64,000 nt of DNA. It comes from a virus (Duplodnaviria; Caudoviricetes). Where the stretch lies: IMG/VR virus record IMGVR_UViG_3300017766_003232, positions 24,922 through 88,921 of that record; one strand, 5' to 3'. The notes under the pieces were generated by a model. The model saw nothing but the letters and a program-made list of their open reading frames with translations. It searched no databases and was not told the origin of the DNA. The stretch's first letter is position 1. Each line of letters starts with the position of its first letter. Of the stretch, positions 1 to 11,881 are shown one piece after another. The position numbers and the translations under genes are program-made.

Positions 1-480
1 TGTAGTTTCTATTTCAACAACTTCCTCAATTATTGTATTTTCTACTTCTACAGGAGCTGGAATAGTAGCTAATTCATCACTAATGATATTTGCAACTTTT
101 AAATACGGAAATCCTTCAATGTTTTCTAAAACTAAATGATTTTCAACTGTTGTATCTAAATTTTTAATTTTTGCAATGTAATCAAATACCTTTTTATCAG
201 AAAAAGTAAAACCTGCTGTGATTTTAAATGTTCCAGGTACTAATTCTTCACCTTCAGCTAAAACACCTGTAGACATTACAAAAACATCATTATCAGCAAA
301 TCCAAATCTTACAATTGATTCACCAGAAATTAATCCCAATGCTTCTTGAGATGCTTTGTTAAATGTAAATTTACGACCAACTTTATCTTTTTGGATTGCT
401 GCTAATGTTACAACTGATACGTTAAATCTTTCTTCTTTTTTTACTCTTGTTACAGGAATTCCCCAAACTATATTTTCCAT
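1..480 (-). CDS. hypothetical protein, 3'-truncated by window edge (MENIVWGIPVTRVKKEERFNV...)
   Basis: ATG at 480-478 after an A-rich leader; frame open to base 1; absent from ORF track because no stop is in the window. Confidence 0.75.
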   Translation of the reverse strand, partial: MENIVWGIPVTRVKKEERFNVSVVTLAAIQKDKVGRKFTFNKASQEALGLISGESIVRFGFADNDVFVMSTGVLAEGEELVPGTFKITAGFTFSDKKVFDYIAKIKNLDTTVENHLVLENIEGFPYLKVANIISDELATIPAPVEVENTIIEEVVEIETT

Positions 481-520
481 TTTTTTAAAAATTAAATTGT
501 TTATAAATTATTTTGATTTT

Positions 521-817
521 TTATTCAGTAATTACTCTTACTGAATGAATTTGTGCTTGACCAGCGTTTCCTTCTGGAAAAGTTCGATAGAATTTTTTAC
601 CTTTTAAATAAGCTTTTAACTCTTTTTTAGCATTCATTCTATCTGTTTTTAACTTTGGATTATCAGTTAAACAAATTTTGTTTAAGATTAATTTAAAATC
701 TCCACCAAATTGTCTAAATGAACGTGGCTCATCGATTAAACCTTTCTCAATTGCATCTAATATTGCATTTGTTGAATCTAATTCTTCTTGTGTAAGAATT
801 TCATTTTTTGCTCCCAT
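521..817 (-). CDS. hypothetical protein
   Basis: 98 aa ORF, co-oriented and tightly packed with neighbours. Confidence 0.7.
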   Translation of the reverse strand: MGAKNEILTQEELDSTNAILDAIEKGLIDEPRSFRQFGGDFKLILNKICLTDNPKLKTDRMNAKKELKAYLKGKKFYRTFPEGNAGQAQIHSVRVITE

Positions 818-828
818 ATGATTATTTA

Positions 829-1503
829 TTAAATTTCGTAATACTCTCTAATTGCATTATCTACAATTACTAAATCATTGTCAATTACATCTTCTTCAAA
901 CATATCAATTGGTGTTTTACAAGTATCGTTACCATTTGATTTTGTTCTAAAAATATGACGATTTGGTTGACCATGAACTTTTTGAATTTCAGCATATAAT
1001 ACAATTGAACTAAATGATTCAGGTACAAACTTTTCTAATTGTTTACCTTGAACAGCAATTCTATGAGATGTTCCTCCAATTTCATCAATTGTAGTATCTG
1101 GATGACACATTATATAAACAATAATATCATTTCTCATTTTATCATTGATAATGTTTATCAAATCATATTGAGAAGCAGAAAATTTACCCCACTTATCAAA
1201 ACCTTTCTCTGCTCTGAATCTTGGATCCATTACAGCATTAGTCATAATTCTTGACCATGTATCAAGTAGAATTGATTTAATTTCAGGTTGCTTATTTAAT
1301 GTTCTAAAAGCATTTATTACTTCTTCAGTGCTTGAAGTATTGAAATAATTACCTTTCTCTACATTATAATTTGCAGAAAATTTTCTAAATGGTAATGCTT
1401 TTTGATCACTATTTATAATTCCTGTTGTTTCAGGATTTAAATTTCTACCAGAGGTAGATTTACCCATACCAGATGGACCTACGACAAATACTAATTGTGC
1501 CAT
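829..1503 (-). CDS. AAA_24-type P-loop ATPase (Sak4-like recombination/annealing protein)
   Basis: Walker A GPSGMGKST near N-terminus, Walker B ILLDTWS, 224 aa, located in replication module. Confidence 0.8.
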   Translation of the reverse strand: MAQLVFVVGPSGMGKSTSGRNLNPETTGIINSDQKALPFRKFSANYNVEKGNYFNTSSTEEVINAFRTLNKQPEIKSILLDTWSRIMTNAVMDPRFRAEKGFDKWGKFSASQYDLINIINDKMRNDIIVYIMCHPDTTIDEIGGTSHRIAVQGKQLEKFVPESFSSIVLYAEIQKVHGQPNRHIFRTKSNGNDTCKTPIDMFEEDVIDNDLVIVDNAIREYYEI

Positions 1504-1564
1504 TTGTTTGATTTTTACGTTGTTTATAATTTTTAATTGGGACTACTAATATACGAAATTTATT

Positions 1565-1873
1565 TCAATTATTTTTTGATAATTGTATAATTTCTTCTTT
1601 AATTTCTGTAGATTTTTTCTTTCTCTGATTCCAAGTTGAACCTCTTAATTCAGGAAATTCTTCTTGTATTTTTCTACTTGCTCTACCAATAGAATCTATG
1701 TATGGAATCTTTCTTTCTGCTACATCTTTTAAAAATGCTTTTACATCTTTTGTAACATCATAACCACATTCTAATAGAAAATTATAGTATAGCCTTTCAA
1801 CAGAGTCTCTAAGTTCAGGATTTTGTTGTAATTTCAACTTAACCCATTTAAGGTAATCTTTGATTAAACTCAT
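1565..1873 (-). CDS. hypothetical protein
   Basis: 102 aa ORF overlapping the helicase stop. Confidence 0.65.
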   Translation of the reverse strand: MSLIKDYLKWVKLKLQQNPELRDSVERLYYNFLLECGYDVTKDVKAFLKDVAERKIPYIDSIGRASRKIQEEFPELRGSTWNQRKKKSTEIKEEIIQLSKNN

Positions 1874-2945
1874 TTTTCATTTTGTAATATTGATTAATAT
1901 TTTTTAATTCATCTGGAGGAGTTACCTCATAATCACTTGGATGACCTAATTGAACATATCTACCAATTTCACCAATAAATAAAAAACTTGCATTTAGATT
2001 TGATTCACCATCTCTGTTTTTACAGATTTTAATTAATCTATAACGATTTTTCCATTTTGTAATATCAAATCCTAAACATTTATCTACTTGTAAATAGAAT
2101 GGACTAGCAATACCTAAAACTGTATTTGCATCTTCTGACACATTACCAGTATTTTTTATGTCAGATAACATAGGCATCCAGTTATCACCATTATCTCTTC
2201 TATCCATTTGTTCAGAACCTCTATTTATCTGAGAAATTACAACAGGTGAAAAATTAAATATATTTCTAAAAAATACTAAGTTTTTTGATAATTGATCAAT
2301 AGCTTCTTTTAGATTTGTATATTTACCTTTTCCAATTAAACCAATGTGATCTATTACAATTTCGGTAATTAAATTTGGGTTATTAGGAATATAATCTTTA
2401 ATATTTCCAAAATTATCATACACAATTGTACCTCTTGTTTTAGCATAACTAAGCAATGTTTCATACAAACTATCTGGATCTACATATGATCTAAAAAATA
2501 AATATTTTTCTTGTAGTTCTTCCAAATCTTTTTCGTATGAATCTATTAGTTGTAAAACTTCATTTGAAATCTCAAATTCACCTCTTGATAAAATTTCATT
2601 TACATTAGTTAATATACCATGCTCTGTCCAAATTCTATATGCAATATGTTTTGCTATTTGCAATTCTGGAGTAATTTCTAAAGAAAAATAAATAATTTCT
2701 AGAGAATTAATGTGACCAGGATGTTTTTGTAGATATTCTATTGGTCCAAAAACATACGCATCATTTACGAATGCTGTTTTACCAATAGAAGTACCTGCAA
2801 ATATTAAATCATATCTGCCTTGTTGAATATTGCAAATATATTTACTTAATGTTGTGAAATTACCAAATGGAATACCCTTATTTAATCCTTGTTTACCTCT
2901 TTCAATCTGTTGTTTTAATCTGGTCCACGTTTTGTTTTTTGCCAT
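1848..2945 (-). CDS. dnaB: replicative DnaB-like (SF4) helicase
   Basis: AGTSIGKT Walker A, IVIDHIGL Walker B, VVISQINR, SDIKNTGNVSEDA and KNRDG motifs. Confidence 0.9.
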   Translation of the reverse strand: MAKNKTWTRLKQQIERGKQGLNKGIPFGNFTTLSKYICNIQQGRYDLIFAGTSIGKTAFVNDAYVFGPIEYLQKHPGHINSLEIIYFSLEITPELQIAKHIAYRIWTEHGILTNVNEILSRGEFEISNEVLQLIDSYEKDLEELQEKYLFFRSYVDPDSLYETLLSYAKTRGTIVYDNFGNIKDYIPNNPNLITEIVIDHIGLIGKGKYTNLKEAIDQLSKNLVFFRNIFNFSPVVISQINRGSEQMDRRDNGDNWMPMLSDIKNTGNVSEDANTVLGIASPFYLQVDKCLGFDITKWKNRYRLIKICKNRDGESNLNASFLFIGEIGRYVQLGHPSDYEVTPPDELKNINQYYKMKNEFNQRLP

Positions 2946-3049
2946 CTTTATTCATTTTAGCGAATTTAATAAGAATTTCTACATAATATTTTTTATCACT
3001 TGTTAACTCATCAATAAAACCAAAATTTTCAAAATAATCAATTGCATCT

Positions 3050-3685
3050 TCAAGTTCTTCCATACGTTATATTAGTTATTGTTAATAATTCATGTAATTC
3101 TTCAGGAATGTAATCACTCATACCATTTTCAAACCAATTGTCTCCATAAAATCCTCCACAAGAATCTATTTCAACATCTTGATTAAAATGTTCTACATTA
3201 TCACAATTACCTGCTTCCCAGTCTTTTTTAGTCATAGAAACCATTTCTACAGATTCTAATATTGTATACCTATAAACCTCACCAGTTAGGTATTGGTCAT
3301 AAGTTTTTACATCTGCTTTACAGATTTCAACAGCTTGTTCTTTTAATTTTTCAGTTAGATTCTTTCCACCAAAATTCTCAATCATTGTTTCTTTTGTGAT
3401 GAATATAAATCCAACTTGACCACTATCCCATTGACAATCAAATGAACCTGTTGACATAGTGATACCACTATGGTCATATAGATATAATGGAAGAATTGCA
3501 GCAATATTATAATCTTTATGCAATTGTTCAGATAATTCTTCCCATGAATCAAATGCTGAAGAGTTATACTCACTGAATTTATCACCTAAATCATATCTTT
3601 TATGGAAACAAACCATTTTTGTTAAATTATCCCAACATCTAGGAGAGTCAGGATAATTTTCTTGTTTAATTACTATTCTTTTCAT
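3050..3685 (-). CDS. hypothetical phage protein
   Basis: 211 aa ORF with LYLYDHSGITMST...WDSGQVGFI motif typical of phage/MGE hypothetical proteins. Confidence 0.75.
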   Translation of the reverse strand: MKRIVIKQENYPDSPRCWDNLTKMVCFHKRYDLGDKFSEYNSSAFDSWEELSEQLHKDYNIAAILPLYLYDHSGITMSTGSFDCQWDSGQVGFIFITKETMIENFGGKNLTEKLKEQAVEICKADVKTYDQYLTGEVYRYTILESVEMVSMTKKDWEAGNCDNVEHFNQDVEIDSCGGFYGDNWFENGMSDYIPEELHELLTITNITYGRT

Positions 3686-3986
3686 ATTGTTCCATTGTAA
3701 TTTGTTCAGTAATAAAATGTAAATCTTCTATACAAAAATCTTTTAAATCAATTGTAACATCATCTTCAATAAATACATCACCTTCTTCATTTATTGTGCA
3801 ATTAATTGCATCTTCTTCACCTACACATTTCCAAGGAGCTATGCTTACTTTAAAAGGTTTTTTGTTTCTTTCAATTAATAATTTAATTAATGTAATTATT
3901 AATTCTTTAGTTCTATAAACTGCTTCTGATTGATCATTAACAATTGCTAATACAGTTTTCATTTTCATATTGTTGTTTCGTTCCAT
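3666..3986 (-). CDS. hypothetical protein
   Basis: 106 aa ORF overlapping both neighbours. Confidence 0.6.
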   Translation of the reverse strand: MERNNNMKMKTVLAIVNDQSEAVYRTKELIITLIKLLIERNKKPFKVSIAPWKCVGEEDAINCTINEEGDVFIEDDVTIDLKDFCIEDLHFITEQITMEQYEKNSN

Positions 3987-4528
3987 TGTAATCCTTCTTT
4001 ATTTTTTGTTGGTATTAATGCTTCCCAATTTTCCCATAAAGCATTGTTTAAAACTGTTTCAATATTTGGTAAAAAATTTAATTTACCTGCTTGTTTTTGA
4101 ATTGCAATAAAATTTTCAGTTGATGCAATTGCTTTTTGGTGTTGTTCTTCTGTTTTAACTTTTTTCAAGTATTTAATCTTATGTTTTTCAGCAATTACAG
4201 CTGTGTTAGTAGAAGCTCTAAGCACACGAGTTCCAACTTTTACAGGATATACTTGATACCATTCCCAAAAATTAATATTATCACCTTTTACACCTAATAA
4301 TTTACCAATATTATGCTTACTAATTGCAGTATGGGATAAACTTGTTGAATCATCACTTAGTATATAATCTGTTCCAACTAATGTATTTCTAATTTTAAGA
4401 GCAGATTCTTTTGTAAATAATGATTTTATCCAAATTAAATTATTATAGTATAAACCATGTAAAATAATAAATTGAGAAGCAGTAAGATTATGTTTTAAAA
4501 GAACTTGTTCATCAATTTCTAATTTCAT
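3965..4528 (-). CDS. putative replisome organiser / helicase-loader-like protein
   Basis: FWEWYQVYPVKV resembles the FW..YP.K motif of phage replication-initiation proteins; located between two helicases. Confidence 0.45.
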   Translation of the reverse strand: MKLEIDEQVLLKHNLTASQFIILHGLYYNNLIWIKSLFTKESALKIRNTLVGTDYILSDDSTSLSHTAISKHNIGKLLGVKGDNINFWEWYQVYPVKVGTRVLRASTNTAVIAEKHKIKYLKKVKTEEQHQKAIASTENFIAIQKQAGKLNFLPNIETVLNNALWENWEALIPTKNKEGLQWNETTI

Positions 4529-7271: not shown

Positions 7272-8381
7272 TTAATTGTATTTTTGAAATAATAATTTGT
7301 GTAAATGATTATAAATTTTTTTTATTTCTTTTTTGCTAAAATTTATATTATTTTCATTATACATAATTAACAATTCATTATTTTCATTCCAATCTCCACA
7401 TATTATCATAGAATTGGATACATAAAAATCATCTTTTAAAATCAAATCTTTTATTTCAGATGAATCATTTTCTGTTGGTAAATCTGCTAATTGATACATT
7501 GCAATAGATTCTTCTTGGTTTTTTGATTTTCTTAATACTTTAACCATTGGTACAAGATCAAAATCTTCAATACATTCTACAATATCTCCAATTTCATATC
7601 TTTTTTCTATAATATCATTTTCACTAACATTTATAATAACATATTTTTTATTAATAATAGAAAAATTATCTTTTGTAGGTGTTAATGATAAAATATTTCC
7701 TTTGTATTTCCATTCTGAATTATTTTCATTATATTTTACAATTTCTGCCCATTTTCCATTAAAATAAACAGCTCCTCCATCGCAATCATCGTCTTTGTCT
7801 CCTTCTATATGTTCGGCAAATAGATTTACATATAAACCACCGTTTTCAATAAAAGTATCTTCATCTATATCATGAGATGTAACTTCAAGAATAATTGTTG
7901 GTTTATGCACAACTCTAAATTGTGTTCCAATTGGATAATGTATTTTAATTTCATTAAATAAATCAAATTTATCTATTACAAAAGCAATGTATAATGATTG
8001 TGCATTCCATAAACATATATCACTACTAAATATACCTTCTACAATACCAAATAAATCAATTTTATATGCAGGTCTACTATCTAATTTAACAATTTTATTA
8101 TTGTTAAAAACATCCATTACATATTTTCCTTCTTGATAAGTTTGCAATTTATAATTTAAAAATTCTATTGAATTTCCTAAATTATTATCAATATAAGTAG
8201 TATGAAACATATAATTTTCTCCTTTAATTATAAAAGTTCCATCACTAAATACATCATCAACAATTACACATTGTCCTTTGTATTTATCCATACCATTATC
8301 ACACCAAGATGAATCTGAATATGGACTTGTTGAAATTGGGTGTTGTTTAATTTTTATTAAGTCTCCTTTTAAAACATTCAT
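7272..8381 (-). CDS. hypothetical mosaic protein
   Basis: 369 aa ORF that appears to be built from several short domains. Confidence 0.65.
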   Translation of the reverse strand: MNVLKGDLIKIKQHPISTSPYSDSSWCDNGMDKYKGQCVIVDDVFSDGTFIIKGENYMFHTTYIDNNLGNSIEFLNYKLQTYQEGKYVMDVFNNNKIVKLDSRPAYKIDLFGIVEGIFSSDICLWNAQSLYIAFVIDKFDLFNEIKIHYPIGTQFRVVHKPTIILEVTSHDIDEDTFIENGGLYVNLFAEHIEGDKDDDCDGGAVYFNGKWAEIVKYNENNSEWKYKGNILSLTPTKDNFSIINKKYVIINVSENDIIEKRYEIGDIVECIEDFDLVPMVKVLRKSKNQEESIAMYQLADLPTENDSSEIKDLILKDDFYVSNSMIICGDWNENNELLIMYNENNINFSKKEIKKIYNHLHKLLFQKYN

Positions 8382-10702: not shown

Positions 10703-10958
10703 ATTTATAATAATTATTACTACTTAAAGCTTTGATATGATCTTTTTGTATTTTTCTGAAAAATCTTTGTTTACGAATCATTGTTTTTCCAAATGTTCTA
10801 CATAGAATAATGTTTCTATGTTTACTATTCCAAGGTGTTTGATTGCTTTTCCAATTTTCTTCTTTTTCTTCATAATTTTTGTTTGAATAACTTAAAATGT
10901 TTGCACAATAGGCAATAAATGCTATAAATAGCATAATAAATGTAATTTTTAAAAACAT
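10683..10958 (-). CDS. hypothetical membrane-anchored protein
   Basis: N-terminal hydrophobic segment. Confidence 0.55.
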   Translation of the reverse strand: MFLKITFIMLFIAFIAYCANILSYSNKNYEEKEENWKSNQTPWNSKHRNIILCRTFGKTMIRKQRFFRKIQKDHIKALSSNNYYKYEEDGC

Positions 10959-10985
10959 AATGAAATTTTAATTGTTTAAAGTTAG

Positions 10986-11124
10986 CAGTCAGGACAGGAT
11001 TCGAACCTGTATGTTTGGATTCATTTACGTTGCCTCTACCACTTAGTACATTTCAACTAATTTGACAGGTCGTACCAAACTCTTGTTACCATGCAATAGC
11101 GTCTACCAATTCCACCACCTGACT
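10986..11124 (-). tRNA. tRNA-like element (class II Leu/Ser-type D arm; anticodon unassignable; 88-nt central region)
   Basis: 7-bp acceptor AGTCAGG/CCTGACT, D arm GTGG-AATTGGTAGA-CGC, T arm ACAGG-TTCGAAT-CCTGT; no canonical anticodon arm; no encoded CCA. Confidence 0.7.
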
Positions 11125-11153
11125 AAAAAACCAAAGTATACTACATTGTACTA

Positions 11154-11507
11154 CTATCTCTTACGAGCCTGTGATAGTTTAGCTGCCCATTCTCTTTGGT
11201 TTTTAATTTTTTCTTCGACATCTTTCTTTGTAAGTCTGTGGGCATATTGGTAATCCCACGCATCGCCTAAAGGTATATGAACCAACTCTAAAGGTGTCGT
11301 ACTAGCAACCATATATTGAGCATAGCCATCTGCAACTGGAAAGCGAATAATCTCGCCCACAAGTTTTTGTGTTGGTTTATGTTTAGTCAATATATCTTTT
11401 AGTTGATCCAAATATGCTTTTTGCTCTGCCATATTTTCCCCATGTGTATTTCCAAATTTCCATTGAGGAACTGCAATTGAACTTGGTGCTGCGAATATCT
11501 TTGCCAT
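11154..11507 (-). CDS. hypothetical phage protein
   Basis: 117 aa ORF. Confidence 0.7.
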   Translation of the reverse strand: MAKIFAAPSSIAVPQWKFGNTHGENMAEQKAYLDQLKDILTKHKPTQKLVGEIIRFPVADGYAQYMVASTTPLELVHIPLGDAWDYQYAHRLTKKDVEEKIKNQREWAAKLSQARKR

Positions 11508-11689: not shown

Positions 11690-11881
11690 AATATTTTGTG
11701 CTTGTTTATAAGTTCTTCTTAACCTGATTCTGGTAAAGCCCAGCAGAATAAGTAAACAACCTGGAATTAACTAATGTAAGGCTTCCAGAACTTTTTCCTT
11801 ACTGCACAAAATATTAATATTGGTACTGAGTAGACTAACCTATATTCATAAATATAGTGTTGCTACGTTCTCAATATTAAT
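11690..11881 (-). ncRNA. candidate structured non-coding RNA
   Basis: 12-bp closing stem, two 6-bp pseudoknot stems, a long interrupted stem, and a 10-bp-based hairpin with an AGUA/GAA internal loop (see findings). Confidence 0.65.

Follow-up and report, generated by a model that had tools for sequence, protein, structure and literature searches.

A tRNA-Leu-shaped element with a conserved 88-nt centre in place of the anticodon arm in a crAss-like freshwater phage

A phage genome from fresh water carries an element in which the acceptor, D and T arms of a tRNA-Leu are intact and an 88-nt centre stands where the anticodon arm would be. The element was confirmed to be a real feature that is not an ordinary tRNA, and its RNA cannot read codons. 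The kind of phage RNA to which it belongs has hardly been characterised, and the element is a new form of it. What is new here is the centre itself, a discrete module that recurs in unrelated phages and in variant shells. The explanation that we prefer, with a probability of roughly 55%, is that the element is a genuine non-decoding RNA gene, in which the tRNA-Leu shell allows the RNA to be processed and stabilised as a tRNA is, and the centre carries the function.

Architecture and setting of the element

The window analysed here is the final 64 kb of an 88.9-kb IMG/VR virus record, which has a GC content of 28% and is estimated to be 68% complete. Its terminase, portal and major head protein match crAss-type PHROG families, and the nearest cultured phage is Cellulophaga phage phi14:2, with a TerL that is 32% identical. 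The source DNA is present in freshwater metagenomes and the hosts are likely Bacteroidota. The element sits in a leftward gene block that includes the DNA polymerase gene. It begins 29 nt past the stop codon of a 117-aa ORF (leader at 11125-11153, minus strand, with T at position -1), and 27 nt separate its end from the ATG of a 91-aa ORF. No second shell and no canonical tRNA were found in the full 88.9 kb of the record. Therefore, codon supply is ruled out as its role, since it is the sole tRNA-like gene in an otherwise tRNA-less genome. About 570 nt upstream on the same strand lies a structured intergenic stretch (11690-11881), flagged in an earlier note made from the sequence of the window, with a pseudoknot-like domain and a long hairpin; no shell motif was seen in it.

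The whole gene, 139 nt including the discriminator G, occupies 10986-11124 on the minus strand, as do all parts listed here. The 5' strand of the acceptor, AGTCAGG (11118-11124), forms seven Watson-Crick pairs with the 3' strand, CCTGACT (10987-10993), which lies within a 24-mer shared by the family described below. Two nucleotides, TG, separate the 5' strand from a Leu-type D arm, GTGG-AATTGGTAGA-CGC (11099-11115), which holds the motif GGTGGAATTGGTAGACGC. The centre runs for exactly 88 nt from the D arm to the T arm (11011-11098) and is followed by the T arm, ACAGG-TTCGAAT-CCTGT (10994-11010), which has a perfect 5-bp stem and a TTCGAAT loop, by the discriminator G (10986), and by the trailer CTA at tRNA positions 74-76 (10983-10985). 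The features listed in the earlier note (the 7-bp acceptor, the D arm of class II type, the T arm without mismatches and the 88 nt between the two arms) are all present as it reported. The Rfam tRNA model (RF00005, model positions 1-71 of 71) spans 10986-11124 end to end at 30.7 bits, where the gathering score is 29, with E = 1.6e-4 in a local search; the alignment jumps 66 nt at the anticodon arm. By default ARAGORN reports zero tRNAs anywhere in the 64-kb window and zero in the 11 homologues of the element. The element therefore shares with canonical tRNAs the 7-bp acceptor, the GG of the D arm and the T arm with a TTCRANT loop, and has neither the 5-bp stem with a 7-nt loop (U33, purine at 37) nor a fixed anticodon. 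The hairpin at that place has an 8-nt loop, in agreement with the earlier claim that no canonical anticodon arm exists. The two program checks proposed with that claim, ARAGORN -i and the Rfam covariance search, returned inconsistent intron calls and the 30.7-bit tRNA match, respectively.

Consensus folding of the homologues by RNAalifold divides the centre into two parts. Nucleotides 1-18 (11081-11098), straight after the D arm, would form a degenerate hairpin at the position of the anticodon arm, with 5 pairs, one mismatch and the 8-nt loop CAUGGUAA. Nucleotides 19-86 (11013-11080) would form a 68-nt domain at the position of the variable arm, closed by GUUUGG/CCAAAC and ending two bases short of the T arm. 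Pair 3-16 of the hairpin is C-G in 9 of the 12 sequences and U-A in the other 3, a compensatory change, and the local hairpin thus explains the variation at position 3. The pairing TTGC/GCAA noticed earlier across the centre is present in this copy; it is not conserved, with pair 3-69 U-A in 3 of 8 distinct homologues. Position 11, in the hairpin loop, is U or G among the homologues, so that no anticodon is fixed. An alternative fold of the 68-nt domain, UUGGUACG/UGUACUAA with an inner hairpin, fits all sequences equally well; neither fold is settled by covariation, and one compensatory pair alone supports any structure in the centre. In tRNA terms the folded model is a degenerate anticodon arm plus a giant variable arm. 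Across the family of shells, anticodon-like hairpins show no enrichment (17 were observed where 10 were expected), and this layout is therefore not general. Family centres fold modestly better than shuffled sequences (median z = -0.76). An 11-codon frame in the centre, from an AUG in the hairpin loop to a UAG (MVTRVWYDLSN), was considered and set aside as probably non-coding; the homologues carry the changes V2G, T3K, R4E and V5D.

The conserved centre and the family of shells

Words from the centre retrieved 4 IMG/VR and 13 metagenome contigs, and the centre was found in 16 other contigs at 95-100% identity. The 88 nt exist in twelve distinct versions, which are 95-100% identical to one another in alignment. 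These homologues were gathered with a 20-mer from the core of the centre, and those 20 positions are fixed by the search. Outside the 20-mer, the 26 remaining core positions show 2 singleton changes, whereas the edges of the centre vary at 10 of 41 positions, so that a core of about 46 nt is nearly invariant and the variable positions cluster at both ends. The carriers have at least nine different flanks and a GC content of 29-50%. Four of them (L199, L200, L202 and L206) represent a distant crAss-like phage, with amino acid identities of 39% in DNA polymerase, 22% in TerL and 25% in the portal protein, and another (L216) is a 50%-GC phage with no detectable shared protein in the 13 kb compared. 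Nucleotide similarity between this genome and the carriers starts and stops at the borders of the element. The ORFs beside the centre, compared in 11 contexts in search of a partner protein, are unrelated except for one pair of close relatives.

The same centre is also found in altered shells. In L212 the acceptor is GGCAAGG/CCTTGCC, which amounts to three compensatory pairs; the single D-stem change among the homologues retains a G-U pair; and L216 shares the discriminator G of this copy, where the other 10 homologues have A. Three shells with this centre (L208:850-1008, L211:545-703 and L214:1022-1181) carry an extra 8-bp hairpin in the D loop, GAGGGTGG/CCATCCTC, which in L214 is GAGCGTGG/CCACGCTC, a compensatory change. 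The shell therefore has a second place where inserts are tolerated. The expectation had been that the arms would covary around a hypervariable centre. Family-wide the centre is indeed hypervariable, but among the elements with this centre type it is the shell that varies more. The case that would have spoken against the element, with ordinary tRNAs as its homologues and this copy alone disrupted, was not found, the same disrupted form being present in the 16 other contigs.

Divergent relatives of the centre were sought in several ways. A covariance model of the centre, run over 1.29 Mb of shell-rich loci, found L095 only and no divergent relatives, and two further viral scans with relaxed patterns added no relatives of the centre. 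The centre 20-mer has 0 matches in 185,579 species genomes. No Rfam family matched the centre, and the stretch 10800-11300 gives only tRNA at E <= 10. When centres were compared with the non-shell DNA in 2 Mb of sequence, as a test for capture, none matched except in loci fetched by this centre's own words. Because identity among the copies never falls below 95% and the searches above gave no divergent relatives, recent horizontal spread could explain the conservation of the centre without strong selection on it. Extreme constraint and recent horizontal spread would both fit the near-identity of the copies.

The shell itself is much more widely distributed than this centre. The 24-mer of the T arm and acceptor is present in more than 120 IMG/VR contigs, and since the same shell recurs in hundreds of phage contigs, it is not a product of chance. 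The D-arm motif GGTGGAATTGGTAGACGC belongs to ordinary tRNA-Leu genes at 56 of the 76 viral loci that hold it, and several of the other loci have the same shell with odd centres. Among the matches listed, a contig holds up to 6 shells, often amid ordinary tRNAs; the 171 unique elements with this acceptor stem among these matches are 53-310 nt long, and ARAGORN calls no tRNA in 132 of them. Centres range from a few nucleotides to more than 250 nt, and a separate extraction from the matches listed gave 171 unique centres that fall into 137 clusters. Contigs from two freshwater metagenomes add up to a depth of 200-4000 over the shell arms, whereas this centre reaches 2-9 and the flanks 3-9. The arms are thus 100-fold deeper than the flanks, and many metagenome contigs put other letters between them. 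The element accordingly shares with many phage contigs a Leu-type D arm and constant acceptor and T arms, and its family shows both unrelated centres in one shell and one centre in different genomes.

Among the 185,579 species genomes, the 24-mer occurs in 14 contigs, all from metagenome bins, and in no isolate genome; judged by this distribution, the shell family appears to be restricted to phages. A blastn search of 50,697 phage records with the locus and the 3' arm found no copy and only 24/25-nt matches to an Enterococcus phage tRNA-Gln. We found no published description of the shell family as such. An Rfam search over 20 shell-rich loci returned tRNA, tmRNA, one group I intron and nothing else. 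On contig L001, which has two shells, the tmRNA match (7832-8193) overlaps the group I intron match (7609-7837) by a few bases, and a further phage tmRNA match lies at L143:5724-6218. The protein most widely shared near shells is DUF932, at 16 of 121 loci. Genes with a T5orf172 domain, which we take to be a GIY-YIG-related nuclease, lie within a few kb of shells at 9 of the 121 loci (e.g. L161:2957-3448). Neither of the two is a constant partner. Apparently genuine tRNAs in L046 (~6534, minus strand), L111 (13031-13101) and L140 (~4957), with identities given as Leu-AAG, Lys-UUU and Ile-UAU, have the AGTCAGG acceptor and a near-identical T arm. Therefore, real tRNAs of different identity share the frame of the shell.

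Maturation signatures and competing explanations

The ends of the shells follow the same rule as those of the tRNAs around them. In 157 shells, A73 is found in 92%, C74 in 97% and A76 in 70%, and C75 is rare; in 190 canonical tRNAs from the same loci, C74 is found in 92%, C75 in 1.6% and A76 in 72%. Canonical tRNA genes in loci L077-L203 almost never encode CCA and end in N73-C-(A/T)-A. Positions 73-76 of the element read G-C-T-A, and its trailer fits the rule of C74, any base other than C at 75, and A76. This near-CCA trailer, N73-C-(A/T)-A, may be a signal for 3' processing. At position -1, T is present in 81% of 205 shells, compared with 66% of 507 canonical tRNAs from the same loci and 31% of the background, and U(-1) is the preferred context of RNase P. 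Placement is also tight: among 105 shells that have an ORF of 100 aa or more on both sides, 90 point the same way as both neighbours, 14 lie at a strand switch and 1 is opposite to both, and shell and ORF are often separated by no more than a few bases (in L216, by 2-7 nt on each side). An RNase P/Z processing signal had been among the roles suggested earlier, and for the shell this part of the suggestion gains indirect support from the U at -1, the tRNA-like trailer and the tight co-oriented placement.

The same observations invite the reading that the shell is the function and the centre a passenger, with the element acting as tRNA-type punctuation whose cleavage by RNase P and RNase Z would uncouple the stability or translation of the adjoining genes. 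The gaps of 29 and 27 nt here, together with those in L216, the 90:1 ratio of orientations and the tRNA-like leader and trailer would all suit it, and so would the range of centre lengths down to a few nucleotides, which implies that the shell alone can suffice. A passenger would be expected to drift, yet in very different genomes this centre has changed less than the shell around it. Moreover, an ordinary tRNA or a bare shell would serve equally well, and punctuation does not explain the arrays in L085, L097 and L210, where up to six shells follow one another with no gene between them. We therefore regard this reading as unlikely.

The pattern of spread has led us to weigh a selfish or recently spreading recombination cassette, in which the shell arms would be portable homology and the centres would hitch-hike with little or no benefit to the carrier. 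Three observations would suit such a cassette: the centre copies keep 95-100% identity, without intermediates, in carriers whose proteins are unrelated or share 22-39% identity; similarity ends at the borders of the element; and T5orf172-type nuclease genes lie near shells at 9 of 121 loci. A cassette of this kind explains the rules of strand and placement poorly, however, since intergenic position and orientation are nearly invariant (90:1) and point to selection at the RNA level. The uneven variation of the centre (2 singletons in 26 core positions, 10 of 41 positions at the edges) and the retention of the same centre in variant shells speak against it as well, and it seems rather improbable.

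A decoy or sponge for proteins that bind the acceptor end or the elbow, such as a CCA-modifying toxin, LeuRS, EF-Tu or RNase P, would need the shell alone. It would account for the family-wide retention of the acceptor stem, the elbow and A73 (92% of shells), and bacterial LeuRS needs neither the anticodon nor the variable arm, so that a Leu shell could still be bound or charged. On the other hand, Leu identity is not strictly kept, with G73 here and in L216 and A73 in the other ten, and one copy per genome would make a weak sponge. Like punctuation, such a decoy explains the conserved centre poorly, and we consider it quite doubtful. A decoy for anticodon nucleases or for T-box sensors, which the earlier note had also listed, is unlikely as well, since the element lacks an anticodon loop and its likely hosts belong to the Bacteroidota, a phylum in which T-boxes are not known to be usual.

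The element could further be read as an intron-containing or suppressor tRNA, as has been proposed for the oversized tRNA genes of Lak megaphages, which are reported to hold conserved introns (PMC6784885). ARAGORN -i does give a tRNA-Stop(tta) with a 45-nt intron; that model, however, has A at position 33 and three G-U pairs in the stem, and the calls on the 11 homologues disagree (Stop, Ser, Ala, Pyl or none). When every contiguous stretch of 20-88 nt was excised from each of the 12 sequences, no ARAGORN tRNA was common to all, and the intron reading, also raised in the earlier note, fails since no excision restores a tRNA. The insert is also far too short for a group I intron and has no Intron_gpI match, although the same model detected one in L001. 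A suppressor was rejected because the tta call is not common to all homologues; 23 ORFs of 250-1556 aa in both gene blocks are open in the standard code (table 11), so that no suppressor is needed. Both forms of this reading are highly improbable. It is hardly credible that the element is a decaying tRNA-Leu pseudogene, and the earlier note had already argued against simple decay. The lack of a functional anticodon arm and an Rfam score barely above threshold would agree with decay, but every arm is perfect, the family-wide processing signatures are retained and 16 other contigs, which come from different phages, hold an element disrupted in the same way.

Known relatives and the proposed role

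Small RNAs of phages are poorly known, and the described relatives of the element, T5 RNA1 and RNA2 and T4 RNAC and RNAD, have been without an assigned function for decades. The T5 RNAs (NC_005859, 30501-30644 and 32959-33083) are annotated as 'tRNA-like stable RNA with unknown functions'. T5 RNA1, which is placed in the tRNA region of the phage, resembles the element: its acceptor has 6-7 bp, its D arm contains the same Leu-type motif (GGAATTGGTAGAC), a T arm is present and some 80 nt of centre stand where an anticodon arm would be. The likeness is confined to the D-arm motif and the architecture, and a search of the T5 locus (L204) with the centre model revealed no sequence relationship to this centre. 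T5 RNA1 and RNA2 are experimentally known stable RNAs, whereas the element is known here from sequence alone; conversely, the Rfam tRNA model misses the T5 RNAs at E <= 0.01, whereas the element passes the gathering score. T4 RNAC (species 1) and RNAD (species 2) are small stable RNAs at the end of the T4 tRNA cluster, and neither has yet been given a role (PMC3014915, PMC9697503). The T arm of RNAC is canonical; in neither RNA was a clear Leu-type D arm or a perfect acceptor seen, and they have no sequence similarity to the element and no match to the Rfam tRNA model. The model matches none of the T5 and T4 RNAs, so the shell described here copies a tRNA more faithfully than they do.

For the Lak megaphages of Prevotella, Devoto et al. 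(2019, PMC6784885) reported that some tRNA genes are oversized and contain 'enigmatic' introns; these are highly conserved, and the inserts are identical in sequence across cohorts. Compared by description only, these 'tRNA introns' are probably the same phenomenon as the element, with the difference that the Lak inserts were read as introns of assignable tRNAs, whereas here no tRNA is regained by excision. In tmRNA, as in the element, acceptor and T arms mimic those of a tRNA and a large insert, functional in tmRNA, replaces the anticodon side. However, the identity of tmRNA is that for alanine (G3-U70), its D arm is reduced and it contains pseudoknots and a reading frame for a tag, whereas the element has U3-A70, a full Leu-type D arm and a centre whose frame is not conserved as a peptide. 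The Rfam tmRNA model (RF00023) has no match in the window, although it found tmRNAs in L143 and L001. Recently proposed bacterial tRNA mimics differ from the element in connectivity.

An artificial analogue works by the mechanism that is proposed here. Ponchon and Dardel reportedly engineered a tRNA scaffold in which the anticodon arm is swapped for a cargo RNA and the chimera is processed and stabilised by tRNA enzymes. That scaffold is a laboratory design on other tRNAs, whereas the element would be a natural and widespread equivalent built on tRNA-Leu. A scaffold that displays an RNA is the best supported of the roles suggested earlier, with a constant shell around many unrelated centres and with this centre as a conserved module.

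One possible scheme for the preferred reading, in which the shell serves processing and stability and the centre is the working part, can be described as follows. The element would be transcribed in the leftward operon of replication genes, between the 117-aa and the 91-aa ORFs. The acceptor, the D/T elbow, U(-1) and the trailer would then be recognised by the tRNA maturation enzymes of the host, so that RNase P would cut at the 5' end, an RNase Z-type enzyme would cut at the 3' end and CCA would be added. A compact, nuclease-resistant, L-shaped RNA would be released in this way, and the operon mRNA would be cut at this place as a side effect. The 88-nt centre, as hairpin plus 68-nt domain, would be the working part; it is as conserved cargo that the alignments present it. 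It would most likely bind a conserved protein or RNA of the host or the phage. Judged by duplex energies and by shared words, pairing of the centre with the 16S, 23S and 5S rRNA of E. coli was no better than that of shuffled sequences, with 23S marginal (4/100). Leucylation is probably not required, given the discriminator G in this copy and in L216 and the A in the other ten homologues. Lastly, the near-identical shell arms, about 25 nt each, would give homology for recombination, which would explain the exchange of centres between phages.

A broader reading is put forward tentatively and is distinctly less probable than the preferred one. The constant tRNA-Leu frame might be a natural platform on which RNAs are displayed and exchanged, combining a handle for enzymes, a stabilising fold and arms for recombination, and the 88-nt centre might be one effector among others.

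For annotation, default tRNA finders miss such genes, which are otherwise mis-called as intron-bearing or suppressor tRNAs. The centre of this element is a module with clear limits and would lend itself to synthesis as bait, and the shells would be a natural precedent for the engineered tRNA scaffold. The shell family is very common in lake metagenomes and would be a new layer of phage-host interaction, in which a single tRNA frame would hold many different conserved RNA modules and unrelated phages would hand these on to one another. If the platform reading is true, the small effector RNAs number in the hundreds and form a common pool for unrelated phages, and the 88-nt centre is near-invariant because it engages a component common to many bacterial hosts.
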